From: a virus
IMG/VR virus record: IMGVR_UViG_3300036893_000013
Span: 1 to 64,000 of that record
Direction: 5' to 3' (one strand)
DNA length: 64,000 nucleotides
In this document: positions 6,633 to 64,000 of the stretch, piece by piece
How the letters are laid out: the number at the start of each line of letters is the position of its first letter
Position numbering within the stretch: the first letter of the stretch is position 1
The notes under the pieces: generated by a model
The model's database searches: none
The model's input: only the letters and a program-made list of their open reading frames with translations
Told to the model about the DNA's origin: nothing
Made by a program: the position numbers and the translations under genes

Positions 6633-6715
6633 GCTCCTGTGATGGAAAGTATACATAGTAGTCTTAAGAACTACCGCCTTCGGGATTGTGGGTTCGAGTC
6701 CCACCGGGAGTACCA
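6633..6715 (+). tRNA. tRNA-Leu(TAA) with encoded CCA
   Basis: Acceptor GCTCCTG/CGGGAGT-A-CCA; anticodon arm GTAGT-CTTAAGA-ACTAC (TAA at 6665-6667); long variable arm; T-arm GTGGG-TTCGAGT-CCCAC. Confidence 0.88.
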
Positions 6716-28903: not shown

Positions 28904-29267
28904 AATCATAGCCTACTGGCAACCGAAACTCAGATTAGATAATTGGAAGTTTTCTTTTAAAATCCATGATGATGTTAAGGATATAGAATGCTTTGCGCTC
29001 AATAAACAGGACCCTAACTACGAAATAGCTACTATTGAGGTTTTGGACCCAAGTAAAATTCCAGAATCGTGGAAAGGATGTAGGGATATAGAAGTAACTA
29101 TACTGCATGAGTTGCTTCATACTAGACTTCTATATGTAGCTCCCCTTCCGGAAAAGAAAAAAGAAAAGGGAAAAAAAGCTAACTGGCAGGTAGAGATGGC
29201 GGTAGAAACTATCAGTCGGGCAATGGTGGCCGCAAAAAGGGGCATAGAGCCAGAGGATATTAAATGA
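28857..29267 (+). CDS. HExxH zincin-like protein
   Basis: WQPKLRLDNW...TILHELLH...E.AVE. Confidence 0.6.
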   Translation: MGKRKALPPLAQQIFEIIAYWQPKLRLDNWKFSFKIHDDVKDIECFALNKQDPNYEIATIEVLDPSKIPESWKGCRDIEVTILHELLHTRLLYVAPLPEKKKEKGKKANWQVEMAVETISRAMVAAKRGIEPEDIK

Positions 29268-45622: not shown

Positions 45623-45988
45623 CTACGGTAGCAACGGGGTTAGGGTGCCCAAATCTATCAGGGGGGCATAATTTAAAGTGAAAATTTGGGGAACGGCCCA
45701 AATCAAAATCCCAGCAGAAGTATAGGCTTTAACTGTATAATAAGAATTAGCAGGAGTGAGAAGGCTGTTAGCCCACAGATATTGGTTGGGTGCTGCATTG
45801 CCGTTTACATCAAGGTATAAGTTTATTACATTGCCAGCAATAATTTGTATGCCAGTTGGACCACCAAGTATAGTCACGTTTGAATCATGATTTAACTGCC
45901 ACGTAAGAATTCCAGACACTAATGGCTGTCCGCTGGGGTCTTGGAATTGACCCCCGACTATTTTAGATTTTTGATATATATTAGTCAT
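45623..45988 (-). CDS. Stand-alone fibre/tailspike anchor-like beta domain
   Basis: FQDPSGQPL..G.L...LDVNGN...LWAN...PANSYYTV resembles N-terminal virion-attachment domains of fibres. Confidence 0.45.
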   Translation of the reverse strand: MTNIYQKSKIVGGQFQDPSGQPLVSGILTWQLNHDSNVTILGGPTGIQIIAGNVINLYLDVNGNAAPNQYLWANSLLTPANSYYTVKAYTSAGILIWAVPQIFTLNYAPLIDLGTLTPLLP

Positions 45989-49200: not shown

Positions 49201-51667
49201 GCGCAGTACCCCCAGAAACCCCACTGTCTACTAACTGCTGAAGATACTTGCTACCACTAACAGTAATGATAATAAACTGCCATCTGTTGTAGTAAGTATT
49301 TGCTTTCCAACCAGATACGGCATTATTAACAATTACATTAGGAGCAGTGCTCCCCCCGGCCATTCCCCAGTTCCAGACAATACCCCCATCAACAGAACTA
49401 CCTCTGTTAATCCATAATGCAGACCCATCTATGGTAGTTGTACCTTCTGTTAATGGCCACTGAACAGCATTGTTTGCGGTATAACTAGATATCGGATTAC
49501 CCCCAGAATTAACTGTTGGAATCTCAAGATCAGTAGTCGGAGGATAATAGCTAGAACCCAAAGCAACTATATTTACCGTACATCCTGTACCAGATATACC
49601 GGCTGTAGTAGCAACACCATTTTCAGTAGAATATCCAGTTCCTACATCTGTTATCTGGATAGTAGCAACACCACCAGTTGACCCGGTTAAACTAGCTACT
49701 CTAAACTGTGCTGTCCCAGAAGTACCAGACTGAGTGGGGAATAACCTATCACCTATTGCATATCCAGTACCGGCAGTTCCCAGTGTTCCTGCTGTAATAC
49801 CTCCCACAAGAACTCCAGTTATATTTACAGTCGCCCCGGTCCCCGTACCGTTAGTAGTGGTGCTCACACCAGAAGCTACAGTGTAAGGCAGATACCCAGC
49901 GTTGTGAACTGTAAGACCAGTTATTGTAGTTCCCGATACCGTAGAGACTGTATAAGAGGCCCCGGCCCCCGAAACTTGTGTTGGATATACTAAATCTCCT
50001 ACATTATACCCAGTCCCTCCTGACCCCAAGGAAAAAGTGGCAATCTGTCCACCACTGACAGTAAGTATATTGAAGGTTGCTAAAGTACCTGTTCCAGAAG
50101 TAGTAGTAGCTAGTCCGGATGCAGCAGTATATCCAGTAAAACTAATTCCTTGATATACCAATCCTATGGTTGCGGGAATGCCATTAATACTCTCTACTAG
50201 AAAGACAGCCCCGGAAGCTGGAGAACCTACCGGAACCACTGGATATATAGCTTCTCCGACACTATATCCGGTACCACTTGCAGCTACCGAAGCAGAAGTT
50301 AGAGGACCGCCAGCATAGGTATTAGGAACTTCTGCGCTGAACTGAGTACCAGAGCTTACTATATTTACGGCTAATCCAGTACCAGAAGTAGCAGTAGTAG
50401 GGATATTAGTAGCTGAATAATAACCTTGTCCAGCAACCTGAATAGCAATTGCAGTCGCTACTCCGGTACATAATGTTACTCCTGTAACAGCACTAATCGA
50501 TACGGTAGCAACTTGAAAATAACCCCCTGAACCGCTAGTTTCTTCCGGAAAAATAAAATCTCCGACAGCATATCCAGTTCCCCCGACTGCTACAGTTGCC
50601 CCAGTTAAAGAACCTCCTGAAGTAGTTATATTAAGGGTGCAATTGACACCAATTCCAGACGTTGTGGTAGAGACATTACTACCGTTTATATACCCTGCTC
50701 CAGCAGAAGTTCCAACAGAAGTTACTTTAACTTGCCCATTCATACTCCCAGCCGGAGTAGTTTGGGAGAGAGAAACAATTTCCCCCACAGTATAACCTTG
50801 TCCACCGAAATATAGACTGGCAGTATTTATAGGACCAACAATATTCTCTATGGTTAAGGTTACACTCGTAGACCCCAAAACTTGAGTTACTAACGAATCT
50901 CCAGAAAAATAAAGTTGAAGACCAGATTGCAGTACTTGAGAGGCAGTTGGAAGGGGATTCGAATTAACATCTGTAGCCCGCATGGTAAACACAAAGGTCG
51001 AGTTATAAATGTAGAAACTAGACAACTGCACTACCGTTCCTATTAACTGTTCTACATTACCATTAGGATCAATGATGAAGGAGTTAAGTTCATAAGGAGT
51101 AAAATTGTACGGATTCAAGACAGCGTATAAGTTGCCGTTCGCTACTGCAATTTCTTGAAGAACAGTGGAATAAGGGATTCTCGTTTGAAGGGTATTAACC
51201 CATTTCTTCTGATTAGCTCCATCCCCCCAAAATAGAACGTTCCCCACACTCTGCATATAACTCTGTCCAGAATACGGACTTTTATTCCAGATATCTATCT
51301 GACCGTTATTTGAGGCATCATATAAGGCAGATTTGGTATCCACCATAGTTTTTATTTGTTCAGTATTAGCATTGAATAATCTAAACTCATAAAAACCATT
51401 TATATTACTCCACGTGTTACTATTCCACACGGAATTCCCCGGACGGCGAACCACTGTAAGTCGTTGGCTGAGTTCCAGATTTTCTCCCCCAAGAAAGGCA
51501 TCTCCTCTAGGCCCGTAAAATTTCTCTTCCAAACGGGTAGAAGCGGCATCTCGTATAGCTGCGCGGTTGCTCCATAGCCCAGTAGTCCATCTTGCCCCCT
51601 GATAAAGAGCAGACTTCCTAGAAGGGCGGGGAGGTTGGGCACCGGCTACTTGTAGAGGATTAGGCAT
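46268..51667 (-). CDS. Tail nozzle/tubular protein B-like with about 1100 aa of inserted repeat and adhesin domains
   Basis: N-terminal GENLELS..LTVVRRPG; C-terminal propeller-like FQDNRLF...VFWSTGPD...; central GxGYxVG(D/E) repeats. Confidence 0.65.
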   Translation of the reverse strand: MPNPLQVAGAQPPRPSRKSALYQGARWTTGLWSNRAAIRDAASTRLEEKFYGPRGDAFLGGENLELSQRLTVVRRPGNSVWNSNTWSNINGFYEFRLFNANTEQIKTMVDTKSALYDASNNGQIDIWNKSPYSGQSYMQSVGNVLFWGDGANQKKWVNTLQTRIPYSTVLQEIAVANGNLYAVLNPYNFTPYELNSFIIDPNGNVEQLIGTVVQLSSFYIYNSTFVFTMRATDVNSNPLPTASQVLQSGLQLYFSGDSLVTQVLGSTSVTLTIENIVGPINTASLYFGGQGYTVGEIVSLSQTTPAGSMNGQVKVTSVGTSAGAGYINGSNVSTTTSGIGVNCTLNITTSGGSLTGATVAVGGTGYAVGDFIFPEETSGSGGYFQVATVSISAVTGVTLCTGVATAIAIQVAGQGYYSATNIPTTATSGTGLAVNIVSSGTQFSAEVPNTYAGGPLTSASVAASGTGYSVGEAIYPVVPVGSPASGAVFLVESINGIPATIGLVYQGISFTGYTAASGLATTTSGTGTLATFNILTVSGGQIATFSLGSGGTGYNVGDLVYPTQVSGAGASYTVSTVSGTTITGLTVHNAGYLPYTVASGVSTTTNGTGTGATVNITGVLVGGITAGTLGTAGTGYAIGDRLFPTQSGTSGTAQFRVASLTGSTGGVATIQITDVGTGYSTENGVATTAGISGTGCTVNIVALGSSYYPPTTDLEIPTVNSGGNPISSYTANNAVQWPLTEGTTTIDGSALWINRGSSVDGGIVWNWGMAGGSTAPNVIVNNAVSGWKANTYYNRWQFIIITVSGSKYLQQLVDSGVSGGTAPWTTSSTIVGQITTDGTAKWKCLSNDSDTTLTWAAHTIYSSGHIIEDTPGSTNCVYQLQPYTGIMTQGSNFPVYYWQCNSQKNSDVGAAGELPNGPPGSTFNTPMSQNGTQPVSTATGSGTMSSFFLSAQGGTNAVEVGVFSYGDGTLSGTLSTLFPSAMENLSIAMLPVFIIPAPGTYTFTFGHQVAMFWGIGNGSISLNVTNITVNNNEVTVQCDRTLASLVSVGVQLTFAGLSNATFLNGETVSIDSVSGMTFTAPLNHSNYGPAADVGTADSGATLVPSAIGPMTWNNSGNPNTYNFSTGTPIKGYKIMSANYPSSGLSIASSIVQVTFPAAGVYPAEIQYGVWYHSTSGETLPTTSPALPFANNTISFYMVYSPPGSTINYNVIPAGIACTGGTSPTFPDWPSTLSALQTDSPAYPTVIEPSGNYTWWNIGPVSTFGWTADVNQTTQPFVVDQNSNEEIAYEAGISGTAEPTFSTTLYGLTADVPNLVWMNNGPIGVTPTGSLTTTQGGWSYAVALVNTLDDTVSNASLVSPATGSFFEASGVFISGGLPQVIDPQADYVAIFRTDDGGATYYLIPPPASGNGNTEYTVPLSQYLAQGFTDTTLDSGLDTLLEAPLALQNSLPPKSSINLAFQDNRLFVSVDNTVFWSTGPDTPIGNGYNGFAPNNYAEFPSLVKRMVPLNVGMLIFTVSDIYVISGNGTAQEPFTSEPLIQRVGLLSYNALTVNGSIMYFMTTDRQTVELNVHSGISQVGFPIADLLQQFDPSASYLTWHVNGSNDQCLFVADGSTGWYRLSPTAPPENISMTWSLKANIVEGCGAIQSVETTPGNIQLLIAPPPTYSGPILYRDYTNWEDNGSTYPANFILGSLVLAYPGQVAAAEFITTDCVRIQGSHPISLGVRIGEIAGPFDDLVFWTNDPAQLPPSDSLYNQRFYMSQTKQSILCRHMQIMGVFDETNSQDELFTLTIFGGFQVEL
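49560..50830 (-). repeat. Degenerate protein-level tandem repeats (GxGYxVG[DE]...GxGY...TTTxGxGTG) within the nozzle
   Basis: GGQGYTVGE, GGTGYAVGD, SGTGYSVGE, GGTGYNVGD, AGTGYAIGD, VGTGYST recur at roughly 80-100 aa spacing. Confidence 0.8.
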
Positions 51668-52884
51668 TAATGAATAGAACCACCTGAAATTTTTCCGTAA
51701 AGGCCACTATTAGTGGTGGCAGTGTTGATGGTATAAGCCCCATAAGAACTTACCGTTGAATCTGAAAGTGTACTTGTGCCTGCCACTACGTTAAGAGTAG
51801 TCACAGTACTATTGATAGTTATGGTATTACTTGATCCCGAAAGAGAGGTGCCGGTACTGCATCCGGTTCCCGCGCCGTTTGTTACTGGAGTTGTGCCATT
51901 CTCCGTATAACACATAATTGTAGTTCCAGAATTTGAGTTAGAACAGGTAACTGTTATGGAAGAACTTGAGACACCAGACCCGGGAGTACAGGTAGGAGCA
52001 GTTGCATTTCCACCGCTGTTCACGGTGTAACTGAAGTTATAAACCCAAAGAGGTCCGACTGTATTTCCATCAGTTCCAGCCGTAAGACCCACATAAGCTG
52101 TGTTCATGCTGCCGACGATTGACGGAATGTTAACGCTAGTCCATACATTATGAAAGCAAGTCGAAGAAGAGGTTGGAGTACACGTTCCTCCAGCAGTAAT
52201 ATCATAGAGATTTAGAGTGAAATTTGAACCATCATAAATAACTGTGGCCGAATAAGTGTCTCCAGTCGTGGTGTTAACGGTCGTGGCTGGAGAATTTAAT
52301 GGTACCGGAGAGGTACTGATCTTACTAGGAGTGTAGTCCGAGTTATACGGAGGAATACAAGGAGACTGACTAGCTTGATAAATCTGAGCACTGCTGTAAC
52401 TGAATGGAAAGGGCCACACAGCACTAGATGACAGTGTACTGATCTGATCGAGTTCTAGAGCAAAAACATTATTAGGTTCGGGAGGTACGAAAGCTTGATA
52501 AAATCCACCTTCGCATCCGGCCCCGGCAACGAAGGTCTGTCCTTGTGCTCCTCCCAGATTGTTCGTATTGTTCAGAGTGAAAGCAATATTGACACCGTTT
52601 GGTACGAAGGTAAAAGTAGAGGTAAAAGCTTGTACATTAACGGCGTAGTAATAAATCAAACTTGAAGACCCATGCCCGGCTCCGTTAGGCTGCAAAAGAA
52701 TATTACTACTTGAAACACTTGAATCTGAGTTATTGAAAAACTGGAAACCCGGATTTCCATATTGCTGTACACTACACGTTCCAGATGTCGCAGCAATCCA
52801 GTTTCCTTGTGTGCAACTGAATATTGACTGCGCCGAAACAAGGGAACTGAAGCAAATAATGCCAAGAATGAGTAGTATTTTCAT
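51667..52884 (-). CDS. Signal-peptide protein: L-type (legume) lectin-like domain plus chitobiase/FN3-associated domain
   Basis: MKILLILGIICFSSLVSA|Q; VNVQAFTSTFTF, FALELD, YSATVIYDGS, AYVGLTAGT; APTCTP.SG...CYTENGTTP. Confidence 0.72.
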   Translation of the reverse strand: MKILLILGIICFSSLVSAQSIFSCTQGNWIAATSGTCSVQQYGNPGFQFFNNSDSSVSSSNILLQPNGAGHGSSSLIYYYAVNVQAFTSTFTFVPNGVNIAFTLNNTNNLGGAQGQTFVAGAGCEGGFYQAFVPPEPNNVFALELDQISTLSSSAVWPFPFSYSSAQIYQASQSPCIPPYNSDYTPSKISTSPVPLNSPATTVNTTTGDTYSATVIYDGSNFTLNLYDITAGGTCTPTSSSTCFHNVWTSVNIPSIVGSMNTAYVGLTAGTDGNTVGPLWVYNFSYTVNSGGNATAPTCTPGSGVSSSSITVTCSNSNSGTTIMCYTENGTTPVTNGAGTGCSTGTSLSGSSNTITINSTVTTLNVVAGTSTLSDSTVSSYGAYTINTATTNSGLYGKISGGSIH

Positions 52885-54309
52885 TTACTGTATTGTTGTG
52901 CCAGAATTATATACATCACCGGAGTTAAATGCACTAGCAGAGACACACCCGGGGGTTACAAGTCCGGTTGGTAAATTGGTGGAACATAGCCACTGCGGAT
53001 AGAGCGGATCATACCGACTAGTATTTGAGACTGTCTGATAGCCGTATGCTGCTGCTACAGAAGTTGGGGTAAAATTAGAAATTAGTGTAGCCATACACGC
53101 TACGGTACTCGCATACGAAGAACAAGATGGTGCTCCCGGAACTGTTGGATTACTAAACGAAACGGCTGTTCCGATGGTATTATTAGGACCATAAGCAAAT
53201 GATCCTGAAGTATAAATTATAGTATTGTTTCCACTTACTCCCGAAGCATATGTGCTGTACAAATGATCGGTCGCATTTCCGTTGCCGACAGCCATCGCGT
53301 AGATCGCATTACCACCAAGACCCGTAGCTGTCGATGTCTGGAGAAGGTTGTTCCAAGCCTGCACATTGTAAGCTGAATAAAGAAATAGTTCTCCAACATC
53401 TGTGCGATTTTGATGTGTATCCCGAAGATTACCCCAAGAGGTATTGTAAAGCATATACACATTACCTAGCGAAGAACCCACTGAATTATAAGGCACTTCA
53501 AGGCCGCTGCTGCCGTTCCCTACAGTAATATTGTTTTGTACAACGACTTGTTGAGAATATGGAGTACCACTCGACTGGGAATAATCTAATGAATCTACGA
53601 TAATTCCTTCTCCATCTGTTGAACCTCCTCCATTACAGGTGGCAGGATCATAGTTGGCATAAGAAAAATTACCCGCAATATAGATATGAGTGCCGGGACT
53701 GGTGTCTTTAGCAAGAGGTTGATAGACACTTATACCACTATAACAGGCAGTATTTCCCTGAGCAGCGTTATAAACTATATCCCCTACAATTGCAATGTAA
53801 TCTACCGAGTAGCTAGTACCGTCATTAAATGTGGAAAATCCACCTCCAATACAGCCGTTAGCTATATCGTCAACAAAGGCAACATCGTACACTTCTGAAG
53901 GTGTAGTTTGATTAGGGGAGGCCATAAAGCATCCTATGTATTGCTGAGGAGCAGAAGAACCCTGAACTTCCCACCCAGCAATCATCCAATGCGGCTTATC
54001 TACCCAGAAGTAGCCCGTAGAACCACTAATGATACAGGCATCAAAGGTGGTACATTTAAGAGTGGCAAAACAGTGGCCTGACCCAGTAACCGCGCCCCAT
54101 TCCCCTTGCCAGAAGTTCCACCCGCTATACGAAGAAGAAGCAGCGGCTGTGATTATATCACCACAATTAACGGCATGGTTTGGACTGAGCCAAGGTGTTC
54201 CGGTAGAGGTTCCGTTATTTGAGTCACTTCCCGACGGCGACAGATAGTAGTTTGTCGCAAAACAGGGAATGGCAAACAGAGATATAAATATTAGAAGATA
54301 TCTTATCAT
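52885..54309 (-). CDS. Signal-peptide protein: right-handed parallel beta-helix (pectate-lyase-like)
   Basis: Start MIRYLLIFISLFAIPCFA|TNYYLSPSGSDSNNGTS..TPW (TAATG overlap at 54309); Asn-ladder coils IAGNFSYAN, TDGEGIIVD, VQNNITVGNG, YNTSWGN. Confidence 0.75.
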   Translation of the reverse strand: MIRYLLIFISLFAIPCFATNYYLSPSGSDSNNGTSTGTPWLSPNHAVNCGDIITAAASSSYSGWNFWQGEWGAVTGSGHCFATLKCTTFDACIISGSTGYFWVDKPHWMIAGWEVQGSSAPQQYIGCFMASPNQTTPSEVYDVAFVDDIANGCIGGGFSTFNDGTSYSVDYIAIVGDIVYNAAQGNTACYSGISVYQPLAKDTSPGTHIYIAGNFSYANYDPATCNGGGSTDGEGIIVDSLDYSQSSGTPYSQQVVVQNNITVGNGSSGLEVPYNSVGSSLGNVYMLYNTSWGNLRDTHQNRTDVGELFLYSAYNVQAWNNLLQTSTATGLGGNAIYAMAVGNGNATDHLYSTYASGVSGNNTIIYTSGSFAYGPNNTIGTAVSFSNPTVPGAPSCSSYASTVACMATLISNFTPTSVAAAYGYQTVSNTSRYDPLYPQWLCSTNLPTGLVTPGCVSASAFNSGDVYNSGTTIQ

Positions 54310-56504
54310 TAGTTGTGCGCCATCATTCCAATCTGGTTGCCTGACCCCCACGATGCTGTTGGAATAGTGATTGTTGACGGTAGTTGCCCGTTTGTGGATG
54401 TTTGACTTACAGGCTGACTGGCATTATATGGGGTGAAACCTTTCCACTCTTCGTCAAGATTAAGAACAGTGGCATTTCCGGTTACCGCCATATAATAATA
54501 CTGACCGGCTGCTGGAGCAGTTAAAGTTACAGGGGAAGATTGGGTAATTGCCTGATCCCATTGACCAGTATGAGTTATGGCTACACCTTGAGAACCGGAA
54601 CCAATATCAGCAACTAGAGGGCAACTTGTTCCACCTAGAGCACAAGGACCATAAATACCTATGTCGTAGTAATGTCCAGAAGTAGTGTCATCAGTAGAAA
54701 CTTGGAAATCTAGATAAGAAATTTTCTGAGCGGTCGCTGGCCCGTTTACGATTACCCAAGTATAAACAGTTCCAGCAGTTCCTACTCCGAAACTTCCCTG
54801 ACTGGTTGAACCCATTGAAATGGGCCAGATAGAAGCAGAAGTGGAACTTCCGCTAGCACAGTTTGCCACATAAGCATCTGTTGCAATATCAGTGTTACTT
54901 GCACAAGATTGTGTCGGAGCGGTAGGAGTTCCTGTAAGAGCAGGAGAAGCAGCAAGTACAACGTTGCCAGTACCAGTACTTGATACATACCCAATTGCCG
55001 ACCATCCGCTAGATGGAGTACCTGCGGTCATGAACTGGGTTCCGGAAGGAGCAGTTGTACTCGGTTGCCATCCGTAAGCAGTAGCAGAAGTCGAGGAGAA
55101 TCCACCAATAGCGAAGTCGTGTGTAGGGATAGTTTGATTTGTAGTGTTACCACCTAAATACATCATACCGGCATCTCCAGAAGGGGGAGCAGAACCAATT
55201 GGTCCAGCGGAAGCTGTAATACCTCCGCTACCGGCGTATGTTAAGGTATTAGCAGTTGTTGCCCCATCATCGAGGTTAGAATCCCCACTAACCGTGCTAC
55301 CAGTTGACGAATACCATGTAATATGACCAGCATTTCCACTACTAACCGTGCCCCCGCCTCCCACAAAAGTACATGTGGATATTGCACTAGAAGGAGTTCC
55401 GCAGCTTAAAAGTGGTGTCGAATTGGTGGGTCCAGTAGCTGGTAGCTGGAGAGCATAAGCTGTAAAAGAAGCTGACGAGGGTCCCATAAATCCAGTGGTA
55501 TTCGAAGTAACGGCCTGATTTGCTGTATTGCCTATAAGAGAAATATATCCAGAATGCACACCGTCTGAAGTCGCTGAAACACCAGAACTAAAAGCCGCAG
55601 AAGTACCAGTAAGTGCTCCGGTTAAAGTGCCTCCTGTAAGAGGAAGATCGAGAGTGGCACTGTTAGCCACACACGAGGCGCAAGTACCAGTTAAGTTGGT
55701 AATTACTCCGGAAGCGGGAGTTCCTAACGCAGGAGTGATAAGGGTAAGATTGGTTGCACTCAATCCACTAGGAAGAGTTGTGCTTTCGGAGGGAACTCCG
55801 CTGCCGTTAGTACTTACAACTGCATTATTTACAGGAGTAACTCCAGCCAAAGCCGAAGTAGTACCTGCGCTATATACGATTGAATTAGTAGCTAAGTTAG
55901 CAAGAGTACCGAGATTTGCTGCTGTTGCTGCGGTTGGACCCGCACTTGTTGAATCAAATTGAAATCCGGAAATAGCCGATCCACCTACTTGAGATACTGT
56001 TCCTGTTTGTGTATACCACGTAACATCGTATTGGGGTTCAGCGGTTACTGTTCCTGATCCGGAAGGAGTTTGGCAAGCTCCATCTCCTCTGAGATACGTA
56101 GAGGAACTACAAGTTCCCGACCATAACCCATACACATCCGCTGCGACTGCTATAGAAGGTACACCGGTAGTTGTAGTATTTTTTAAAATACCTGTTCCAA
56201 GGCCGGACAGAAGGGTTCCGTTAATACCTTTTACAGTAGTAGCACCCCCTGTAGAAGTACTGACAGCATCGCCAGTAAGGGCATTGAAGGTACCACTTCC
56301 ACCAAAAGCTGTCCATGTGTTTGTTGCAGAACAGTAGTATGGAGATTCAATCCCACCAGAAAGCAGGTAGAAATTAATCACAGGACTACTAACCGAGCAA
56401 GTCGCGGGGAGACTAGAACCACTACCGTAACTTACAACTCCGCTTTGTGGTCCCGTCTGCGCGAGAGCGGGGAGTGCGAAAAATAAAAATAAGAGTTTTT
56501 TCAT
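54309..56504 (-). CDS. Tail-fibre-like protein with a cleavable signal peptide
   Basis: MKKLLFLFFALPALA|QT; fibre motifs TPALGTPASG, LPLTGGTLTGALTG, GTGNVVLAASPALTGTPTAPT...IATDAYV; globular C-terminal tip. Confidence 0.7.
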   Translation of the reverse strand: MKKLLFLFFALPALAQTGPQSGVVSYGSGSSLPATCSVSSPVINFYLLSGGIESPYYCSATNTWTAFGGSGTFNALTGDAVSTSTGGATTVKGINGTLLSGLGTGILKNTTTTGVPSIAVAADVYGLWSGTCSSSTYLRGDGACQTPSGSGTVTAEPQYDVTWYTQTGTVSQVGGSAISGFQFDSTSAGPTAATAANLGTLANLATNSIVYSAGTTSALAGVTPVNNAVVSTNGSGVPSESTTLPSGLSATNLTLITPALGTPASGVITNLTGTCASCVANSATLDLPLTGGTLTGALTGTSAAFSSGVSATSDGVHSGYISLIGNTANQAVTSNTTGFMGPSSASFTAYALQLPATGPTNSTPLLSCGTPSSAISTCTFVGGGGTVSSGNAGHITWYSSTGSTVSGDSNLDDGATTANTLTYAGSGGITASAGPIGSAPPSGDAGMMYLGGNTTNQTIPTHDFAIGGFSSTSATAYGWQPSTTAPSGTQFMTAGTPSSGWSAIGYVSSTGTGNVVLAASPALTGTPTAPTQSCASNTDIATDAYVANCASGSSTSASIWPISMGSTSQGSFGVGTAGTVYTWVIVNGPATAQKISYLDFQVSTDDTTSGHYYDIGIYGPCALGGTSCPLVADIGSGSQGVAITHTGQWDQAITQSSPVTLTAPAAGQYYYMAVTGNATVLNLDEEWKGFTPYNASQPVSQTSTNGQLPSTITIPTASWGSGNQIGMMAHN

Positions 56505-56507
56505 ATT

Positions 56508-57617
56508 TTAGTATCCGTAGTAATAGCCGTAATTAAAGGGACTTGCAGGACCAACAGGATAGAACGGACCTAAAACAGAATCTCCGGACATTTGCGTATC
56601 GGGGAAAATACTCCATGCCTGTTCTTCCCTCTCTCCTGCTCTTATAGCTTGCTCAATTTGTTCATGCCACATCTGATTCTGCATAGCTGCGCGGGGGGAA
56701 TTAGCATGTTGAAGGCATTTAGCAACAAATCCTTCCCGGAAAAGATAAGCTAAATCATCTGGAACTGGAGAAATAGTCTGGTCTAAATACTTGAATCTAG
56801 GTGCTCTACGTTGGTAAACAATCCAAAATAACCAAGTAAATCCGCCTTCAGCAGGCAGAGGATTTACTCTTATAGCAAAGCCATTAGGATTAGCTACTGT
56901 CCAAGTAAGAGTACCGTCAGGTACCGTAGTACCCGGGGGCGAGGCGGGAGGAAGTTCCGGAGCAGTAGAACCCGAAGTTCCAAAATTAGCACCCGTACTG
57001 TTATAGGGATTAGGTGTCGGTAAAGGAATATTAGTCCCTTGATATCCTTGAACATTAGGAGTAAGGCCCATGATAGAAGTGTCTAGGAATAGCATGTTCC
57101 CATTAGCATCTACGATTTGTTGAATAGGAGTTTGCGGAGAACCAGAAGTACCATATCCGCAGTTGTATACTGTATTAGCAGTCCAAGTACCAAAATTACA
57201 CTGGTTATTAGGTATAAAGCATACTATACTGGGATTTCCCTGATAAGGAGTAAGTCCCATGTCTCTATTAGTTTCCATAAGAAACAGTGGTTTTGGACAG
57301 AGATTGCCTGTATTAGTGTTATTATTGATATCAATTCTAAATGCTGACGTTAGCCAGCCCACGTCAGTTAGATTAGTAATATAGTCTTGCTGTAGAGAAT
57401 TAGATAAGAATAAGGGAACATAAGACGCATTCCATCTCCAATTCAAACCTTGCGATAGAATTTTTTGAAGAACATCGTTAGCGAAGGTCAGCGCTGGTTC
57501 AAAAGTATAGCCACCCGCAGGAAGAATTGGATTACACTCAGAAAAACTTCTAGCATAATCAACTACTTCCTGTAGGGTTATAGAGCTAGGTGGAACTAGA
57601 TTTGGAAGAACAGGCAT
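56508..57617 (-). CDS. Tail adaptor/tubular protein A-like with inserted module
   Basis: ITLQEVVDY...ANDVLQKIL...WRWN; C-terminal RVNPLP...YQRRAP...VPDD; no signal peptide. Confidence 0.6.
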   Translation of the reverse strand: MPVLPNLVPPSSITLQEVVDYARSFSECNPILPAGGYTFEPALTFANDVLQKILSQGLNWRWNASYVPLFLSNSLQQDYITNLTDVGWLTSAFRIDINNNTNTGNLCPKPLFLMETNRDMGLTPYQGNPSIVCFIPNNQCNFGTWTANTVYNCGYGTSGSPQTPIQQIVDANGNMLFLDTSIMGLTPNVQGYQGTNIPLPTPNPYNSTGANFGTSGSTAPELPPASPPGTTVPDGTLTWTVANPNGFAIRVNPLPAEGGFTWLFWIVYQRRAPRFKYLDQTISPVPDDLAYLFREGFVAKCLQHANSPRAAMQNQMWHEQIEQAIRAGEREEQAWSIFPDTQMSGDSVLGPFYPVGPASPFNYGYYYGY

Positions 57618-57625
57618 GGGTTTCC

Positions 57626-58297
57626 TTAATTAATCACTGAACCTGTCAGGTTTTGTGGAGTGGGTGGAGTTGGTATAGAGGGGGCAGTAGCCACGACAAC
57701 TGAAAAGGTATTACTAGGGGCACTTTGCGTACCCGCCGCGTCAACTGAAACTACGTAGTAATCATATGTAGTCGAAGCATCGATTGTTTTATCAGTATAG
57801 GTTGTAGTTTGTATAGCTGTTGGTGTCAGTTGTATTGCTGACCCTCCAGCAACAGATCGAAATACAAGGTACCCAGTTACAGCCGGAGTGCTAGTAGTAG
57901 GAGCTTGCCATACGAGTGATACACCACAAGCCGGATTAGGATCAGTAGCACAGAACAGAGCGGGAGTTACTGGAGTTACTGGGGTTACTGGAGGCGTTGT
58001 TCCCGCAGCATTGACCGTCAGCGTCAATTTCGTCGTCGTATAAACACCAGCCGTGGGCGTGGCCTGCTGAACCTCGATATTATAGGTTCCTGCTGCCGTT
58101 GGAGTACCTGAAAGAATTCCAGTGGTGTTATCGTAACTTAATCCGTCTGCTGATATCTCCTGTATACCGTTAATTGTGACCAGATAACCGCCGTTTGAAA
58201 CAGGTGCCGCAATAGCCTGACTGAAAGGTACCCCTACAGTTGCGGTTGTGGTTTGAGCGTAAACAGTAGATGCCAGCAAAAATAGTATTAGTTTCAT
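57626..58297 (-). CDS. Signal-peptide protein: putative Ig (He_PIG-like) plus FN3 domain
   Basis: MKLILFLLASTVYA|QT; GLSYDNTTGILSGTPTAAGTY; PVT linker; VSLVWQAP...GYLVFRS...YTD...YDYYVVSVD..G.QSAPSN. Confidence 0.8.
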   Translation of the reverse strand: MKLILFLLASTVYAQTTTATVGVPFSQAIAAPVSNGGYLVTINGIQEISADGLSYDNTTGILSGTPTAAGTYNIEVQQATPTAGVYTTTKLTLTVNAAGTTPPVTPVTPVTPALFCATDPNPACGVSLVWQAPTTSTPAVTGYLVFRSVAGGSAIQLTPTAIQTTTYTDKTIDASTTYDYYVVSVDAAGTQSAPSNTFSVVVATAPSIPTPPTPQNLTGSVIN

Positions 58298-61200
58298 TTT
58301 AATTGTACCTGTTTGGCGATTAAGTTCCCACTCAGTCCAATTGGTGGAGGAAGCGGTACTGAGCTAAAGTTAGCTGTAAACGTAGAAGCTTGATTTAAAG
58401 AGAATTGAGGACATGGATTTATTGTGCCTACGCAAACAGCACTACCTGATGCCCCGGACCACCCTGAAAAAGCATATCCCGGATTAGCCACTGGAGTGCA
58501 TGGTCCGATCAATGTACCAGAAACATAAGAAGCTGTAGCACAATTTGTACCTGTAATATATCCGTTCGAAGCTATGGTAGTCAGGGAAACTCCGCTAGTA
58601 ATTACCCATGTTCCACCTTCAACTGCTGAAGAAGTATATCCGGCTTGACATGCAATTACCCTCATCGTGGTTGTTGTTGAAAATGACTGTGCAGCATACG
58701 CAGGACTAGAACAGGTTGGTGCTGAGCCATCTAAAGTCATGAACATAGAGCAACCAGAAGTTGGAGAAGTCCAACTTACTGAAACAGGAGGAGTAGAGTA
58801 AGTGCCTGAATAGTTCGGTGGGTTTTGATAAGGATTCCCGCAAGTAGAAGTACCTCCCGTAAAAGTTGCAGTTACGGTGGTTGCAGTTGTCAAAACAAAC
58901 GAAGGACATGGATTTGTTGTTCCACTGCAAGCAGCATTGCCAGATACCGTCCATCCTGCAAAGGTTGATCCACCGGTGGCTGTTGCTGTCAAAGGACCTA
59001 TAGTTGTACCTGATGTATAAGAACCTGTTAAAGAATTTGTACCAGTAATTGTGCCTGTTCCAGACCCAGAAGTTGAAACAGTTAAACTTACTAATGTACT
59101 TCCTCCAATAAGTGGATGTGGATACTGGGCAGGAATATATGCAATAGTCCAAGTATTTGTAGAGGTACATTTGAACAACTCACCTTGTCCAAACCCATTG
59201 CCACTGCTATTCCAGTTCCCCTGATCTGTCGCCCAGTACCCTACGCCTGTAGTGCAGCTAGAGGGCCGATTCGCTAATGCACCAAACCCAACACCGCATG
59301 TGTAATTTCCGGACCCTGCGTTACAAGTTGTTGAACCATTAAATGGAACTGTTGTTGAAGTTTGTGCTGTTGGACCGGAGAGGCCCCCAGCCTTCCAATC
59401 GTCGGTGTAGAAATCACGATTTTGGATGGTCTGTCCAGCATAATTAGTCCCGAATTGTTGACCTAGAAATGAGGCGGGGGTAATGGTATCATCCCATTCA
59501 TAAGCAGGATCAAGCACTTCGTTCATCGGCGCGGTTGGAGTTGGTACTGCCGCTCCTGAAATATAAGCCCCTTGCCCTCTTCCCCACTGATCTTCGCAAA
59601 CCGTGGCCCGGATGATCTTATAAGTATCTCCGGGATTGTAAGAGGCCCCGTTGTTGATTTCGGCGTACATCGTCAGGGTGTTGTTAGTGTTGGATGTGAT
59701 CTGCGCACCGAAGCTTTGCGTTGTATCGTAGAAGAAATAAGGTGCGCCATAAGGTGCCCACTGATTAGTTGTCCAACTCTTCGACGTATCGGTAATCGTT
59801 GTTGTCCCGCCCCCAGTCAGCGTGCTTGAGACATAAGTCACATTGTCCACGGTATCGCCGGGATCGATTGAGGTCAATCCACCGCATGTTCCGAAAAAGG
59901 GGTTAGCTAGAGCAATACGGTAGGTCGTACCGTCCATGATCTGGTTAAAGTAAGCTCCACCTGAACTAATACCGGTATTACCAAATGCAATCCCTGTACC
60001 ACCCCTGAATGAGACAACAGCATCACCGCAATTTAAGGTACAAGTAAGCACATTTCCGTATGTTTCTGTATGTCTTCCAGACCTCGGTCTGCCAGTCGAA
60101 TCTGTTCCGTGAACGGCTGTATAAGCAAAAGCGTTGTAACCTATCGAATGATTAAAGCGATTTACGACTCGGCATCCACCACTTTGGTTAACTGTGATAC
60201 CAGCTTCGGTGCAATCATTGAATGTGGAACCATTTAAATTAACCTGATTATTTTCTGCAAACCAGTTAGTCAATCCGCCGAAACTATCTGGTTGTGCCCA
60301 TGAGTTATCGCCAAACTGTCCCACCCCGAGATAGGAGGACATCTGTGCGGTGTAAAGATGGTTTGAAAGACTACCTGTTGGGAGGGTGGAGTGATCTACA
60401 ACTCCAATGGCATCATCCACTCGGATCATGTCCACTGTGTTATCGCCGTTGCCGGATTCAGTCCACTGCGTTGAAATGCCAAAACCGATGTTATCAACAC
60501 GCACTTGAGGAAATCCGGCAGAAGTGGATGTTCCCTCGATAAATACCACTCCACCCAAACTCGTAGAACCGTTGATTGGGTCCAGATTCATACTCTCAAG
60601 TTTCGTTACATTACTAGTTCCATTATATGTAGGCTGAAGGAACCAGATAGGACCACTCGGATTGTTGGATTTTATCGTTAGAGTATTAGAACCTGATCCA
60701 AATGTTGATGTGCCTGTATTAGCACCTGCGTTTGGACCAGTAATATCAATTGAAGCTGTTACTACTACATCAGTTGTCCACGTACAGGTGCCCGCAGGAA
60801 TTGAAATAATATCTCCATTACAAGCAATATGGGCCGGTCCATTGATAGCTGAGTTGACATCGGATTGGTTGCAAGATGCAGCCGTGTAATTACCACATCC
60901 TGTAGAAGTACCGCTGGCACTGAGAGTTGCATTTGAACTTAGTGTGCAGGAAGCTGTCCCCGTTCCTGAAACCCCGCTACAAGACCCAGTACCAGACCAC
61001 CCAGAACTGAACGTATACCCAGCACTTGGCGTAAACGTGCATGGTCCAATAGAAGTTCCTGAAGCATATGTTCCAGTTGCACAATTAGCACCCGAAATTG
61101 TACCGTTGGTTGCGGTTACCACCAATGAATAATTAGTAGGTGTAGAGCCAGTACTTACAAAAGTAGTGATGCTTTGTGCAGGTATCGTGTAGGTGAATGA

Positions 61201-62511
61201 CTGACTTGAAACGGTTATATTTGCCAACTGCTGAATACTTTGAGTTGCAGAAGTAATGGTTGGCGTAAGAGTCGTGAACGTCGGGGCGTTCGTGATGTTG
61301 AAAACTTGGGAGAGCGAGGACCCGGTGTAGTTAGTCGCGATGATGACCAGTGTGTTTGAAGAAGTTTGTTGATACGCTGAAACTGTAACTCCGCTTTGCG
61401 GGTTGTGCGTAGCACTAATACGGTAGTAGCCGGGTCGAACGAATTTGCTGTACTGTGCTAATACGTAAGCCCTATCTGCAACCGCATATCCGCTTGCAGC
61501 ATTGGCTATAAGCGAGCCGTTGCTTGTTGTTCCTGCCCCTCCAGCCTGATTGAAGTCGATTAGCTGCCAGAAAAGCCACATGTTAGCTCCATCTTGCATC
61601 CGCTGATCGATGATCGCACCCCAACACAAACCGTCTGAAATCGTGGCGGTGAAGCTTGAATACGAACCGCACGCCGGACCATAGCTGGGACCTTGTGATG
61701 CTTCTGTTTCCCACCATTTCTTTCCGCTTGCCCAACCCGCAGGATAAGTGGCAGGACTTACTGGAGGTACTCCACCAGAAAGAAAAGCATCGTAATCGTG
61801 CCAATCTGCGACTCCAAGATAAGTCGTGCAGGAGGGGTCTGTACCGCAAGTTCCACCACTCGATGATACCGCACTGTACTGGTAAGAAGTGGGCATGAGG
61901 ATTAGTGCCGGGATGCTTTGGGAAGCGAAGGTCGGTCCTAGATTAGTTTTGATAAAAGTATCGATGTTTCCCGAAGACCATAAGGCACTGTCATACGTCT
62001 CGCATTCTTCAGGCTCGTTTTGGACTCCCATTCCGTATAACTGAATACCATAGTAGGTCGAGAGGCTTTTGTAGAAGTTTGCGCCCCAGATTGCGTAGTC
62101 GCCGTAATGTCCAGATGCAAGTGCTCCTGAACCGGGATTACATATTGTGCTGTTATTGGTGGTATATATGGCGGGCGGGGACCAAGGATGAGAGATAATT
62201 CTCACGTTTTGAGATGCAGCGTACTGCAAGTCGGCAATTACAGATCCAGCGCATCCAGAATTAACAGTCGTACAACTTTGGCCGGGACCATCCTGATGGC
62301 CATTAGTCTGCCCTATCCGCAAAACTGACAAACCGAGTTGCCCTGTTCCATTTCCGAAGAAAAATTGCTGGTGTGCATTAGACATGGAAGTAGTCCAGCC
62401 TTCGTTCGAACCACCGAAGCCATCGATTATCTGGGCTGGGGCAGTCCAGTTGATGGTGGCCTGTCCAGCAAGCGAGAGCGGAAAGAGCAGCAGAAGTATA
62501 AGTCTTTTCAT
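58294..62511 (-). CDS. Signal-peptide multidomain protein: GH30 glycoside hydrolase, three InlB-B-like repeats, beta-helix-like domain, chitobiase-type domain
   Basis: Start MKRLILLLLFPLSLAG|Q (TAATG overlap at 62511); QIIDGFGGS, LGLSVLRI, PWSPP, QNEPE (acid/base), WWETE (nucleophile), QYSKFVRPGYYRI, SITTFV. Confidence 0.82.
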   Translation of the reverse strand: MKRLILLLLFPLSLAGQATINWTAPAQIIDGFGGSNEGWTTSMSNAHQQFFFGNGTGQLGLSVLRIGQTNGHQDGPGQSCTTVNSGCAGSVIADLQYAASQNVRIISHPWSPPAIYTTNNSTICNPGSGALASGHYGDYAIWGANFYKSLSTYYGIQLYGMGVQNEPEECETYDSALWSSGNIDTFIKTNLGPTFASQSIPALILMPTSYQYSAVSSSGGTCGTDPSCTTYLGVADWHDYDAFLSGGVPPVSPATYPAGWASGKKWWETEASQGPSYGPACGSYSSFTATISDGLCWGAIIDQRMQDGANMWLFWQLIDFNQAGGAGTTSNGSLIANAASGYAVADRAYVLAQYSKFVRPGYYRISATHNPQSGVTVSAYQQTSSNTLVIIATNYTGSSLSQVFNITNAPTFTTLTPTITSATQSIQQLANITVSSQSFTYTIPAQSITTFVSTGSTPTNYSLVVTATNGTISGANCATGTYASGTSIGPCTFTPSAGYTFSSGWSGTGSCSGVSGTGTASCTLSSNATLSASGTSTGCGNYTAASCNQSDVNSAINGPAHIACNGDIISIPAGTCTWTTDVVVTASIDITGPNAGANTGTSTFGSGSNTLTIKSNNPSGPIWFLQPTYNGTSNVTKLESMNLDPINGSTSLGGVVFIEGTSTSAGFPQVRVDNIGFGISTQWTESGNGDNTVDMIRVDDAIGVVDHSTLPTGSLSNHLYTAQMSSYLGVGQFGDNSWAQPDSFGGLTNWFAENNQVNLNGSTFNDCTEAGITVNQSGGCRVVNRFNHSIGYNAFAYTAVHGTDSTGRPRSGRHTETYGNVLTCTLNCGDAVVSFRGGTGIAFGNTGISSGGAYFNQIMDGTTYRIALANPFFGTCGGLTSIDPGDTVDNVTYVSSTLTGGGTTTITDTSKSWTTNQWAPYGAPYFFYDTTQSFGAQITSNTNNTLTMYAEINNGASYNPGDTYKIIRATVCEDQWGRGQGAYISGAAVPTPTAPMNEVLDPAYEWDDTITPASFLGQQFGTNYAGQTIQNRDFYTDDWKAGGLSGPTAQTSTTVPFNGSTTCNAGSGNYTCGVGFGALANRPSSCTTGVGYWATDQGNWNSSGNGFGQGELFKCTSTNTWTIAYIPAQYPHPLIGGSTLVSLTVSTSGSGTGTITGTNSLTGSYTSGTTIGPLTATATGGSTFAGWTVSGNAACSGTTNPCPSFVLTTATTVTATFTGGTSTCGNPYQNPPNYSGTYSTPPVSVSWTSPTSGCSMFMTLDGSAPTCSSPAYAAQSFSTTTTMRVIACQAGYTSSAVEGGTWVITSGVSLTTIASNGYITGTNCATASYVSGTLIGPCTPVANPGYAFSGWSGASGSAVCVGTINPCPQFSLNQASTFTANFSSVPLPPPIGLSGNLIAKQVQLK

Positions 62512-64000
62512 TATTGTAAAGCCACACTCACGTTGATGAAATTTTCCGTGGTCCCAGTCGTCCATGTTGGGGTATAGAGTCCCGCTGATGCCTGCGTATA
62601 ATGACCTCCCGCTTGGGTGGCTCCTGCCGAATTGGTTGCGTTTATATCGAACGAAAAAGGAGATGGAGCACTAAGAGCTACCCCAGCCCCTATTCCAATG
62701 AACGTGAGGACTAGAGAATTTGCTGCGGTAGTAGTAAGGGAAGAACCTGTACAACTGGACGAGCAGGAGGCCGTGCCGTAACTGGACAGCACGATCCCTG
62801 TTGTCGTGGCATTTGATATCTGTTCTAAGACTCCACCCATCCCAGCATAAGAAGTTGAGGTTCCTGATACTGTGACCGTACAAGAACCGGTGACATTTGC
62901 AACCCCTGTCCAGATTGACTGGCCCGAGGACCCGGTGGTTGGTGAACCCTGTGCAGTCCAAGTGGGTACACAACCTGAAGGCGTGTTCCATGCTGTAACG
63001 TTAATTCCAAGACCCCAAAGTACCAGCGTATTTCCAGTCGTGATTGATAATGTGACCGTGCTAGACGGATTTACACTGTAGGCTCCTACCACACCAGCAG
63101 CAGATACAAAAGTCGGATTACCGCCCCCTCCACCTGATCCTCCACCAAGCACAATCCAAGTTCCGGAAGACCCATTACAAGCAACGAAAGCAAAATTTGA
63201 TCCGCCACTAACATAAGTAGCACCAGAAATAGCGGATGTTGAATCTGTAACTGTTGCGGTGGGCCAAGGTTGAGACATGCTACTGCTACAAGTAGGAATA
63301 GGATTTGATGAGGCATTGCCAGCGGTGTATGATATGACACCGGGACCTGTACCAGCTATAACTACAGGAACATGGGCAGTCAGATCACCACTGTTGGTAA
63401 TATTGTAATCGAAGGGTAGATATGAAGTGGCTGTTGTAGCTGTAGCCGCCATAACTCCATACCCGGCAATTTGGCCGGTAATAGAACCTGCGGGAGTACA
63501 CCACGTACCGTTACCACACCAGACAGTTGAACCAGAGGCTCCGGTTCCCCCATTAAAATTAGCTATTTGTAGATTTCCTGTAACTCCACCAGCACCCGTC
63601 CCAGCTAGGTTAATTGCGGGAATAACCGAGGAGTTCAACAATCCACTTGAAAGCTGTGGAATGTCTGAGCCTGAATTACCGACAGTATAACTTGTTCCCC
63701 ACCCAGAACCAGTTGAGTTTGCAAGTCCGGCCCCGGGGTAGGTTGAAGAGGCGCAAGAAGAACAAGAAATACTAATACCTAAAGCAGTGGTGGTAATAGA
63801 AAGGGGAGAGTTGGCAGTAATATTTGTGCCTATATAGCTACCCAGATCATATAGTTGAGGAGCTATTAGACTTCCGGTAGGTTCTTCTCCTAGAAAATAA
63901 GCATGTCCAGTAGTGGTCTGGCCCGATACATAGGATGTAGTGTTAGCGCTGGACTGATAAGGAATAGAGCCTAAACTACCCCCAGCTAGTCCTCCGGCAT
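62511..64000 (-). CDS. Tail-fibre-like Gly/Ser/Thr-rich protein; 5' end lies beyond the window
   Basis: Frame has no stop up to 64000 (...GGSLGSIPYQSSANTT...CSSC...YPGAGLANSTGSGWGTSY...NFNGGTGASGSTVWCGNGTW). Confidence 0.7.
   Translation of the reverse strand, partial: AGGLAGGSLGSIPYQSSANTTSYVSGQTTTGHAYFLGEEPTGSLIAPQLYDLGSYIGTNITANSPLSITTTALGISISCSSCASSTYPGAGLANSTGSGWGTSYTVGNSGSDIPQLSSGLLNSSVIPAINLAGTGAGGVTGNLQIANFNGGTGASGSTVWCGNGTWCTPAGSITGQIAGYGVMAATATTATSYLPFDYNITNSGDLTAHVPVVIAGTGPGVISYTAGNASSNPIPTCSSSMSQPWPTATVTDSTSAISGATYVSGGSNFAFVACNGSSGTWIVLGGGSGGGGGNPTFVSAAGVVGAYSVNPSSTVTLSITTGNTLVLWGLGINVTAWNTPSGCVPTWTAQGSPTTGSSGQSIWTGVANVTGSCTVTVSGTSTSYAGMGGVLEQISNATTTGIVLSSYGTASCSSSCTGSSLTTTAANSLVLTFIGIGAGVALSAPSPFSFDINATNSAGATQAGGHYTQASAGLYTPTWTTGTTENFINVSVALQ

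Follow-up and report, generated by a model that had tools for sequence, protein, structure and literature searches.

The window analysed here is a stretch of 64,000 nucleotides (nt) comprising bases 1-64000 of a 112,037-bp phage record in IMG/VR (IMGVR_UViG_3300036893_000013), which is estimated to be 98% complete. The phage is a large short-tailed podovirus from soil that resembles SU10 and Tunturi_3. Its minus strand carries a tail block (51667-67912) of 10 tightly coupled genes, 8 of which start with predicted signal peptides. As judged from gene order, these exported genes occupy the slot between adaptor and nozzle in which relatives keep their fibres. The best explanation is a composite one, held tentatively and at a little less than an even chance: an exported set fills the fibre slot, spikes among it would dock on the particle after the inner membrane is breached, and the remaining proteins would be free or loosely attached. 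The sole cultured relative in the phage collection was Tunturiibacter phage Tunturi_3 (portal 36% identical), a 97.6-kb podovirus infecting a tundra-soil acidobacterium (PMC11924767).

Organization of the tail block

In the order of transcription the block encodes proteins of 421, 99, 601, 676, 1405, 223, 369, 731, 474 and 405 amino acids (aa), and the genes are named here by these lengths (coordinates in Table 1). The two block genes without a signal are those of the 99-aa protein, which has two hydrophobic helices, and of the 369-aa protein. The block is flanked by a signal-free 244-aa gene upstream and a signal-free 1799-aa gene downstream. The initial annotation of the window had listed five minus-strand genes with signal peptides (LAG↓Q, VYA↓Q, ALA↓Q, CFA↓T and VSA↓Q, the arrow marking the cleavage site). 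All five were found in their places, but the true total is eight, with the block continuing past 64000; the open reading frame (ORF) cut at the edge of the window is that of the 676-aa protein, with LLG↓Q. For two of the signal-bearing genes (62511 and 54309) an internal ATG was required in place of the longest-ORF start, and each of these ATGs shares one base with the stop codon of the gene before it. Junctions within the block range from an 8-nt overlap to an 8-nt gap. On this account the genes look translationally coupled, and the tight coupling reported earlier stands.

The upstream flank was assigned by a match of the 244-aa protein to Pfam PF24175 (SU10_adaptor; 30.0 bits, cut-off 27, E 8.7e-7). 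The tail adaptor had at first been placed at 57617, the start of the 369-aa gene. The Pfam-supported SU10-type adaptor is instead the 244-aa gene beyond the window, and the 369-aa protein is its paralog. By BLASTP the 369-aa protein matched Tunturi_3 gp12 at E 7e-54 and the 244-aa adaptor at E 5e-9, and its Atlas feature scores to SU10_adaptor clusters were 0.96-0.97. It gave no direct PF24175 match in the Pfam scan; its ortholog in the related locus L017 matched weakly (E 0.005).

Downstream, the 1799-aa protein matched Tunturi_3 gp19 by BLASTP at E 1.6e-166. Its C-terminal 700 aa were modelled with AlphaFold2 (AF2) at low confidence, with a mean predicted local distance difference test score (pLDDT) of 50. 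The top 24 Foldseek matches of this model were all podovirus nozzle or hub proteins, including those of Pan3, GP4, Pam1 and SU10, P22 gp10 and T7 gp12 (E 4e-9 to 1e-5). Judged by the model, the protein is podovirus nozzle/hub-like, and the nozzle label that it had been given was upheld by the gp19 homology together with these weak model matches. More than 230 homologs of the nozzle family were counted, on contigs of 60-118 kb. As annotated, neither the 369-aa nor the 1799-aa protein has a signal-like N-terminus. The PF24175 match and the nozzle-model matches likewise bear out the interleaving of signal-bearing genes with true tail genes. In phage SU10 the adaptor gene is followed by those of the long and short fibres and then by the nozzle gene, and the fibres dock on the adaptor (PMC9509320). 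The present genome has no other long fibre gene, which counts for a virion role of the exported proteins.

The arrangement also bears on whether the exported genes form a moron or lysogenic-conversion island, made from the prophage and altering the host surface, its feeding (xylan or glucan) or its immunity to superinfection. Morons whose products are exported occur beside tail genes in other phages, as with lambda lom and T5 llp, and soil phages carry glycoside hydrolases as auxiliary genes. The phage encodes a tyrosine integrase (Table 1), and Porphyromonas prophages encode signal proteins of unassigned role with Gln at +1 (PMC10367356). Yet the block genes lie on the late strand, joined to the adaptor and nozzle genes by overlaps or by gaps of 8 nt or less, and no gap that could house a separate promoter was seen. 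Throughout a clade of phages of 90-118 kb the trait keeps its position, and two of the proteins carry a tailspike-type N-terminal domain. A moron island is quite unlikely.

Predicted export signals

Signals were called with a strict home-made rule, by which an N-terminus needed a net positive n-region, then 8-16 hydrophobic residues without charge as its core, and small residues at both -3 and -1. The rule called 15 of the 160 ORFs of the genome: 8 of 10 in the block versus 7 of 150 elsewhere (Fisher p = 3e-8), and several of the latter 7 are doubtful small ORFs. Gln follows 9 of the 10 clear signals in the genome, and 7 of the 8 in the block. No C-terminal sorting domain of type IX secretion (Por_Secre_tail or similar) was found in Pfam and NCBIfam scans of the exported proteins.

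The signals were judged real because of four independent lines of evidence: their conservation, the register of the GH30 domain, the Gln+1 habit of the host lineage and the cysteine pattern. A large protein collection yielded seven homologs of the 601-aa protein, each starting with a signal that ends in A/G↓Q. In the 1405-aa protein the alignment of the GH30 domain with crystallised secreted xylanases begins at query residue 15, which pairs with their residue 2. In a 400-kb stretch of an Acidobacteriaceae metagenome-assembled genome (MAG; CAVVBW010000006.1), scanned with a crude rule, Gln follows the -3/-1 site in 34 of 55 signal-like N-termini. Gln+1 has so far been described as a Bacteroidetes rule, and the defining paper does not mention Acidobacteria (PMC5837995). 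The "Bacteroidetes Q-rule" seems valid in Acidobacteriaceae too, and Gln+1 is taken here as a signature of the host lineage because the Acidobacteriaceae genome has the same habit. The cut sites counted in this MAG (G001:C6:1-400000, L022-L041) are overwhelmingly of the form A/G/S↓Q, in the 34 of 55 given above.

Cysteine counts of the eight mature exported proteins are all even (10, 12, 12, 2, 36, 14, 12 and 6), and Cys makes up 2.2% of their residues versus 0.64% in 27 other late proteins. Among relatives an even count was found in 20 of 21 large signal-bearing proteins versus 69 of 134 signal-less ones; pooled with the present phage, 28 of 29 signal-bearing proteins have one (p = 6e-8). Even and enriched cysteines fit predicted disulfide-bonded extracytoplasmic proteins. 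Taken from these features of sequence, export and oxidative folding of all eight proteins are very probable.

The hydrophobic N-termini might instead be unused for export, as uncleaved assembly or membrane-tether segments, or because Sec is shut off late, with assembly wholly in the cytoplasm. This would agree with the assembly of tailed phages, which to our knowledge is cytoplasmic in every studied case. It would leave eight textbook n-h-c signals with small -3/-1 residues and the Gln+1 of the host lineage, the even and enriched cysteines of 28 of 29 such proteins, and the conservation of signals over about 70 clusters at the 50%-identity level to be accounted for in some other way. The captured lectin and GH30 genes moreover keep the signals of their secreted bacterial homologs. 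We consider unused signals very unlikely.

Lys and Arg together make up 0.5-2.4% of the mature exported proteins, 2.7% of the nozzle, 2.5% of a 121-aa protein encoded downstream and 1.9% of a 264-aa protein; in capsid, portal and internal proteins the value is 7-16%. The depletion may be an acid-soil adaptation of outward-facing proteins. Three more small exported proteins lie beyond the tail block. One is lipoprotein-like (102 aa, LVVG↓C; window 13333-13641, plus strand), and the other two, of 119 and 143 aa, have A↓Q sites (genome 86444-86803 and 86842-87273, minus strand); the mature 119-aa protein opens with a TP repeat. These three could be spanin, exclusion or surface proteins.

The spike-like proteins and their N-terminal domain

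Residues 16-115 of the 676-aa and 601-aa proteins are 57% identical and the remainder diverges, so that the two are tandem paralogs with a common N-terminal domain (N-domain), which holds conserved Cys pairs. The first 320 residues of the 601-aa protein were searched with HMMER against 1.84 billion representatives and gave 151 matches. About 70 of these open with the same N-domain, and a signal, mostly with A/G↓Q as its end, stands in front of it in all representatives read by eye; the approximately 70 representatives are clusters at the 50%-identity level.

The AF2 model of the N-domain (residues 19-112) had pLDDT >90. Its best fold match was the N-domain of the tail fibre of cyanophage Pam1 (7eeq_A; Z 8.7, Foldseek E 1.3e-3), and it matched the head-binding domain of the P22 tailspike (2vnl) with Z 8.2 and a root-mean-square deviation of 2.9 over 85 residues. 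The Pam1, P22 and Sf6 gp14N N-domains were the top matches in two different searches (Z 7.6-8.7), with Pan3 also among them. A P22/Pam1-type particle-binding identity of the modelled domain is a good lead, not proof. Profile comparison found no similarity between the signal-led N-domain and the docking domain of the gp14/gp15 type described below. The 601-aa protein also has a module weakly in common with the N-terminus of Tunturi_3 fibre gp18 (E 6.5e-4).

The same signal-led N-domain was met in a 1593-aa protein encoded in a stretch of about 16 kb of an Acidobacteriaceae chromosome (L020:2000-18500). A tyrosine integrase and a serine recombinase are encoded there as well, and the stretch is flanked by two ORFs with a common repeated peptide (GGDDGARTRDLCRD), which look like tRNA-derived att sites in duplicate. 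The stretch may be an integrative island, or a satellite, with a spike gene as cargo.

Directly upstream of the 601-aa gene lies that of the 99-aa membrane protein, which showed no similarity to Tunturi_3 gp27 and no family match. To call it a holin is a guess from its size, two hydrophobic helices and charged tail. The closer relatives likewise encode a small membrane protein ahead of the N-domain fibre, except for L016. The adaptor-like gene of L016 was considered as a fusion with a membrane protein, and this was rejected; its extra length is an inserted domain. Conserved directly before the N-domain spike gene in close relatives is the gene of a protein of 87-106 aa that combines two hydrophobic helices with a Lys-rich tail (L013:9679-9978, L014:8662-8982); its function may be that of a holin or of a dedicated membrane helper.

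Putative lectins, predicted GH30 enzyme and other proteins with export signals

The 405-aa and 421-aa putative L-type lectins are paralogs, 50% identical. For the 405-aa protein an Atlas feature score of 0.96 was obtained, with structural template modelling (TM) scores of 0.47-0.50 to lectin clusters (Lectin_legB/CHB_HEX_C). A direct Pfam match at E < 0.01 was not obtained; many close homologs carry PF00139 in precomputed annotation. There are 371 homologs of the 405-aa lectin, many of them on Mb-size bacterial contigs, and nearly all of the 119 lectin homologs read carry a signal, mostly A↓Q. By Atlas labels this family of secreted bacterial proteins is commonest in Acidobacteriota. The closest homologs of the lectin (P0011, P0015, P0023) have in common with it the C-terminal tail G-x-K/R-x-S-G-G-x-I/L-H (window 51667-51720), and homologs on Mb-size bacterial contigs are without it. 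Loosely similar strands (S/T-G-x-hydrophobic) form the C-termini of the 1405-aa and 223-aa proteins. The shared lectin tail may be a docking strand.

The 1405-aa protein consists of a signal, a catalytic GH30 domain directly behind it, and then InlB-B-repeat and CHB_HEX_C regions. It matched GH30 family PF02055 at 24.2 bits (cut-off 23), with PF18998 and PF13290 also above their cut-offs. The match to NCBIfam XynC (E 1e-44) was below the equivalog cut-off, and PDB entries 7n6h and 3gtn were matched at E 1e-36 to 1e-33. Both catalytic glutamates of GH30, in the NEP and W-x-TE motifs, were aligned. From these alignments the protein is predicted to be a GH30 enzyme. The lectin labels (by Atlas features and homolog annotation) and the GH30 label (by PDB matches) of the initial annotation hold. 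The lectins and the GH30 enzyme have the look of secreted proteins that were captured from bacteria.

Pfam fn3 was matched by the 223-aa protein at E 2.9e-4, below the family cut-off. The signal of the 731-aa protein is kept in a 716-aa homolog of L005 that stands at the same place after the adaptor paralog, and its residues 456-583 weakly matched a cellulose-binding GDSL hydrolase (E 6.5e-4). The 474-aa protein gave no Pfam, NCBIfam, PHROG or PDB sequence match, and for most block proteins PHROGs and PDB sequence searches yielded nothing. The set, annotated at first as fibre, lectin and carbohydrate-active enzyme (CAZyme) genes, is a mixed one: two proteins have a tailspike-type domain, one is fibre-like, four have only domains of secreted proteins and the 474-aa protein has no match.

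Occurrence in relatives

Relatives were surveyed at 63 IMG/VR loci of the nozzle family with upstream DNA. Most are Tunturi_3-like, with two adaptor paralogs and, after them, fibres of 230-480 aa that have no signal and begin with a domain of the gp14/gp15 type. About 16 of the 63 loci have large signal-bearing proteins in the fibre slot instead. In L085, L090 and L094 adaptor and nozzle are separated by a single large gene, which codes for a signal-bearing protein. The signal-led N-domains of the approximately 16 loci are of two types, that of the present phage and one opening QQPQ.

Downstream of the nozzle gene the present phage encodes a 121-aa protein that matched the N-terminus of Tunturi_3 gp15 by BLASTP (E 5e-18). 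The protein reproduces, on its own, the N-terminal docking domain found at the start of the signal-less Tunturi_3 fibres gp14 and gp15, and it may be a cytoplasmic stub on the tail. In L054, L072 and L075 a short protein consisting only of the gp14-type domain stands directly before the exported fibres. The 121-aa protein and these short proteins suggest, by their sequences and positions, a possible split fibre, with a docking stub in the cytoplasm and a distal part that is exported.

In two relatives (L007:11133-12023, L017:13452-14309) the gene of a GIY-YIG-type homing endonuclease lies between adaptor paralog and nozzle. This is the position of the three extra exported genes of the present phage.

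Proposed role of the exported proteins

The eight proteins would leave the cytoplasm through the host Sec system, lose their signals to signal peptidase I, with Gln mostly following the cut, and form disulfide bonds as they fold in the periplasm. Three would be fibre or spike proteins. The mature 676-aa and 601-aa chains would open with the P22/Pam1-type particle-binding domain, and we infer that these two are the receptor-binding appendages of the phage. The appendages would wait in the periplasm and dock on the head-tail particle, built in the cytoplasm, once the holin opens the inner membrane. In P22, assembly ends with the addition of the tailspike, for which mixing is enough in vitro. The other five are the two putative L-type lectins, the GH30 glycanase and the fn3 protein, whose domains are typical of secreted bacterial proteins, and one protein of unassigned fold. 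The first four were probably captured with their signals. They would be free or loosely attached, binding or cutting host exopolysaccharide (EPS) at release and in the next infection.

Points for a virion role are the fibre slot, the N-domain, the conservation of this domain with swapped C-termini, and the precedent of Cellulophaga phage phi18:3. That at least the two N-domain proteins are virion spikes docking after the breach has roughly even chances.

All eight proteins might instead be exported and none be part of the virion. They would then form a late secretome of the kind of WceF, loosening, binding or cutting EPS or capsule from the periplasm and after lysis, or masking receptors on debris, so that progeny escape, with receptor binding by the particle left to the nozzle and its long Ig-like insertion. 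The 1799-aa nozzle is 660 aa longer than its Tunturi_3 counterpart. In L010 the adaptor paralog and nozzle gene are adjacent, so that the three genes between them here appear as dispensable cargo. Secreted homologs of the lectins and of the GH30 enzyme number in the hundreds in bacteria. On the other side, the signal-bearing genes lie exactly in the SU10/Tunturi_3 fibre slot and are the sole large genes there in some relatives. A conserved N-domain with swapped C-termini and tandem paralogs is the pattern of virion-anchored receptor-binding proteins, the 601-aa protein has its weak module in common with fibre gp18, and the leader-bearing proteins of phi18:3 were found in virions by tandem mass spectrometry (MS/MS). 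A lysis-released enzyme needs a signal only for oxidative folding, and the same need holds for a virion spike. A late secretome with no share in the virion is rather doubtful; that all eight proteins are free would be the less expected outcome, though one to be reckoned with.

Several points weigh against spikes that join the particle from the periplasm. Periplasmic fibres could meet cytoplasmic particles only briefly, after the holin has acted and before dispersal. Signals are wholly absent from the fibres of Tunturi_3, the nearest cultured relative. The N-domain scores are at the level of generic beta-sandwiches, carboxypeptidase-regulatory and pilin domains reaching Z 6-8, and the best Foldseek E stays above 1e-3. 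No anchor domain is recognisable in the two lectins, the GH30 enzyme, the fn3 protein or the 474-aa protein. At the 20-kb L020 locus, with its N-domain protein in an integrase-bearing stretch, no phage structural genes were seen among the ORFs, which were read by their N-terminal sequences only. Detection of the phi18:3 proteins could reflect a co-purifying secreted protein, and that phage is unrelated. WceF of Pantoea stewartii combines a signal and a domain of the same type in a free bacterial EPS hydrolase and is not a virion part (PMC7949094).

Were a whole clade to fold its spikes and fibres in the periplasm and dock them at lysis, tailed-phage assembly would have a step outside the cytoplasm, contrary to textbook accounts, and the timing of lysis would be part of morphogenesis. 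Virion proteins could then be stabilised against acid soil by disulfides and perhaps by pyroglutamate at the N-terminus, and recombinant receptor-binding proteins or depolymerases of such phages would need periplasmic expression. Extended to a sizeable group of soil (and marine) podoviruses, the claim that receptor-binding appendages are secreted, disulfide-bonded and joined to the particle after holin action, perhaps with a split fibre, is somewhat doubtful. On a more cautious reading, a late phage secretome of lectins and glycanases would be a way past the thick exopolysaccharide of Acidobacteriota. The trait occurs in cultured phages (Tunturi_1, Cellulophaga phi18:3 and phi46:3), which makes it testable now.

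Genome, host and remaining features

A single long late module on the minus strand (35866-80281) holds terminase, portal and major capsid genes, the tail block and then large internal proteins. The plus-strand half of the genome carries replication and nucleotide genes (Table 1). Clustering of the NAMPT-like, RlaP-type, RNA ligase and tRNA-Leu(TAA) genes suggests a set for nicotinamide adenine dinucleotide (NAD) salvage and tRNA repair, possibly for counter-defence.

The host is most likely a member of the Acidobacteriota. A Bacteroidota host was the first guess from Gln+1 and was dropped because the Acidobacteriaceae MAG also shows the Gln+1 habit; in addition, the nearest cultured relative infects Tunturiibacter, and the only genomic match of the N-domain is in an Acidobacteriaceae MAG.

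Table 1. Positions of the tail block genes and of other features of the phage; entries marked genome are positions in the complete record
Feature	Position	Strand	Signal	Cys	Remarks
121-aa stand-alone docking domain	45623..45988	-			match to Tunturi_3 gp15 N-terminus
1799-aa nozzle-like protein	46268..51667	-	none		homolog of Tunturi_3 gp19
405-aa putative L-type lectin	51667..52884	-	VSA↓Q	10	CHB_HEX_C-like tail
474-aa exported protein	52885..54309	-	CFA↓T	12	
731-aa fibre-like protein	54309..56504	-	ALA↓Q	12	
369-aa paralog of SU10-type adaptor	56508..57617	-	none		homolog of Tunturi_3 gp12
223-aa fn3-domain protein	57626..58297	-	VYA↓Q	2	
1405-aa predicted GH30 glycanase	58294..62511	-	LAG↓Q	36	
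676-aa tailspike-like protein	genome 62511-64541	-	LLG↓Q	14	C-terminal 495 aa inside window
601-aa tailspike-like protein	genome 64541-66346	-	GIC↓Q		
99-aa two-helix membrane protein	genome 66339-66638	-			
421-aa putative lectin	genome 66647-67912	-	VYG↓Q		
244-aa SU10-type adaptor	genome 67913-68647		none		PF24175 match
NAMPT/NAPRTase-like gene	window 349-2730	+			
RlaP-type nucleotidyltransferase	window 4003-5016	+			
RNA ligase	window 5472-6623	+			
tRNA-Leu(TAA)	window 6633-6715	+			
Tyrosine integrase	10255-11208				plus-strand half
Class II ribonucleotide reductase with intein	window 29264-32971	+			intein holds LAGLIDADG homing endonuclease domain
Family-A DNA polymerase		+			
Primase-helicase		+			
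UvrD-like helicase		+			
UvsX-like recombinase		+			

Comparison with known systems

Tunturi_3 has portal, capsid, both adaptor paralogs, nozzle and internal proteins in common with the present phage, at 24-46% identity and in the same order, but its fibres gp13-gp18 are without signals. Tunturi_1 is a different podovirus of 63 kb. In it gp12, gp13, gp14 (annotated as tail spike), gp16 and gp17 carry signals with A↓Q or A↓T, and these genes stand behind the "tail protein" gp11. The paper on the Tunturi phages does not mention signal peptides (PMC11924767).

Cellulophaga phage phi18:3 has three textbook signals with Gln+1, as here, on gp085-087, and these are listed in GenBank (KC821620) as structural proteins "based on experimental MS/MS proteomics analysis". 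In phi46:3 five signal-bearing genes with Gln+1 follow in a row (gp079-083). In both phages consecutive large leader proteins adjoin small membrane proteins. They differ from the present phage in being Pachyviridae with an unrelated, Bacteroidota host, and in the few cysteines of their leader proteins. The N-domain profile did not match Tunturi_1 gp12-17 or phi18:3 gp085-087 at E up to 10, and no paper discussing the signals of the phi18:3 and phi46:3 leader proteins was found.

The spikes and fibres of P22 (gp9), Sf6 (gp14), Pam1 and Pan3 are like the 601-aa and 676-aa proteins in that a beta-sandwich N-domain of about 100 aa, here a modelled one, starts the mature chain and C-termini vary, and in that their genes adjoin those of adaptor and nozzle; the common N-domain of the two tandem paralogs is a further likeness. 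Unlike those spikes, the present proteins have a cleavable-looking Sec signal before the domain and conserved Cys pairs, with no detectable sequence similarity.

WceF consists of a signal, a P22-tailspike-like head domain and a glycan-cutting body, and acts on the EPS of its own producer (PMC7949094). It was also among the fold matches of the N-domain (6tgf_E, rank 42). WceF differs in being a free enzyme with a Tat signal, encoded by a chromosomal gene in an EPS synthesis cluster; the present proteins are phage-borne, lie in the fibre slot of a tail operon and form a set of eight.

Other exported relatives of tail or phage proteins indicate that fibre folds tolerate export and that phages use host export late. 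The mosaic adhesive trimer fibres of Bdellovibrio are reportedly tail-fibre-like proteins sent through Sec. Exported phage lysis and exclusion proteins include secreted or signal-anchor-release (SAR) endolysins, T4 RI, T5 Llp and lambda Lom and Bor. None of these is a receptor-binding appendage of a tailed phage, and the phage examples are small. In the literature searched, signal peptides on tailed-phage fibres or spikes were not described; the closest published cases were the Porphyromonas prophage proteins with Gln+1, WceF and the Bdellovibrio fibres. The parts of the present system (tailspikes, lectins, a GH30 enzyme and Sec signals) are ordinary; their combination, and the assembly route that it implies, are not.

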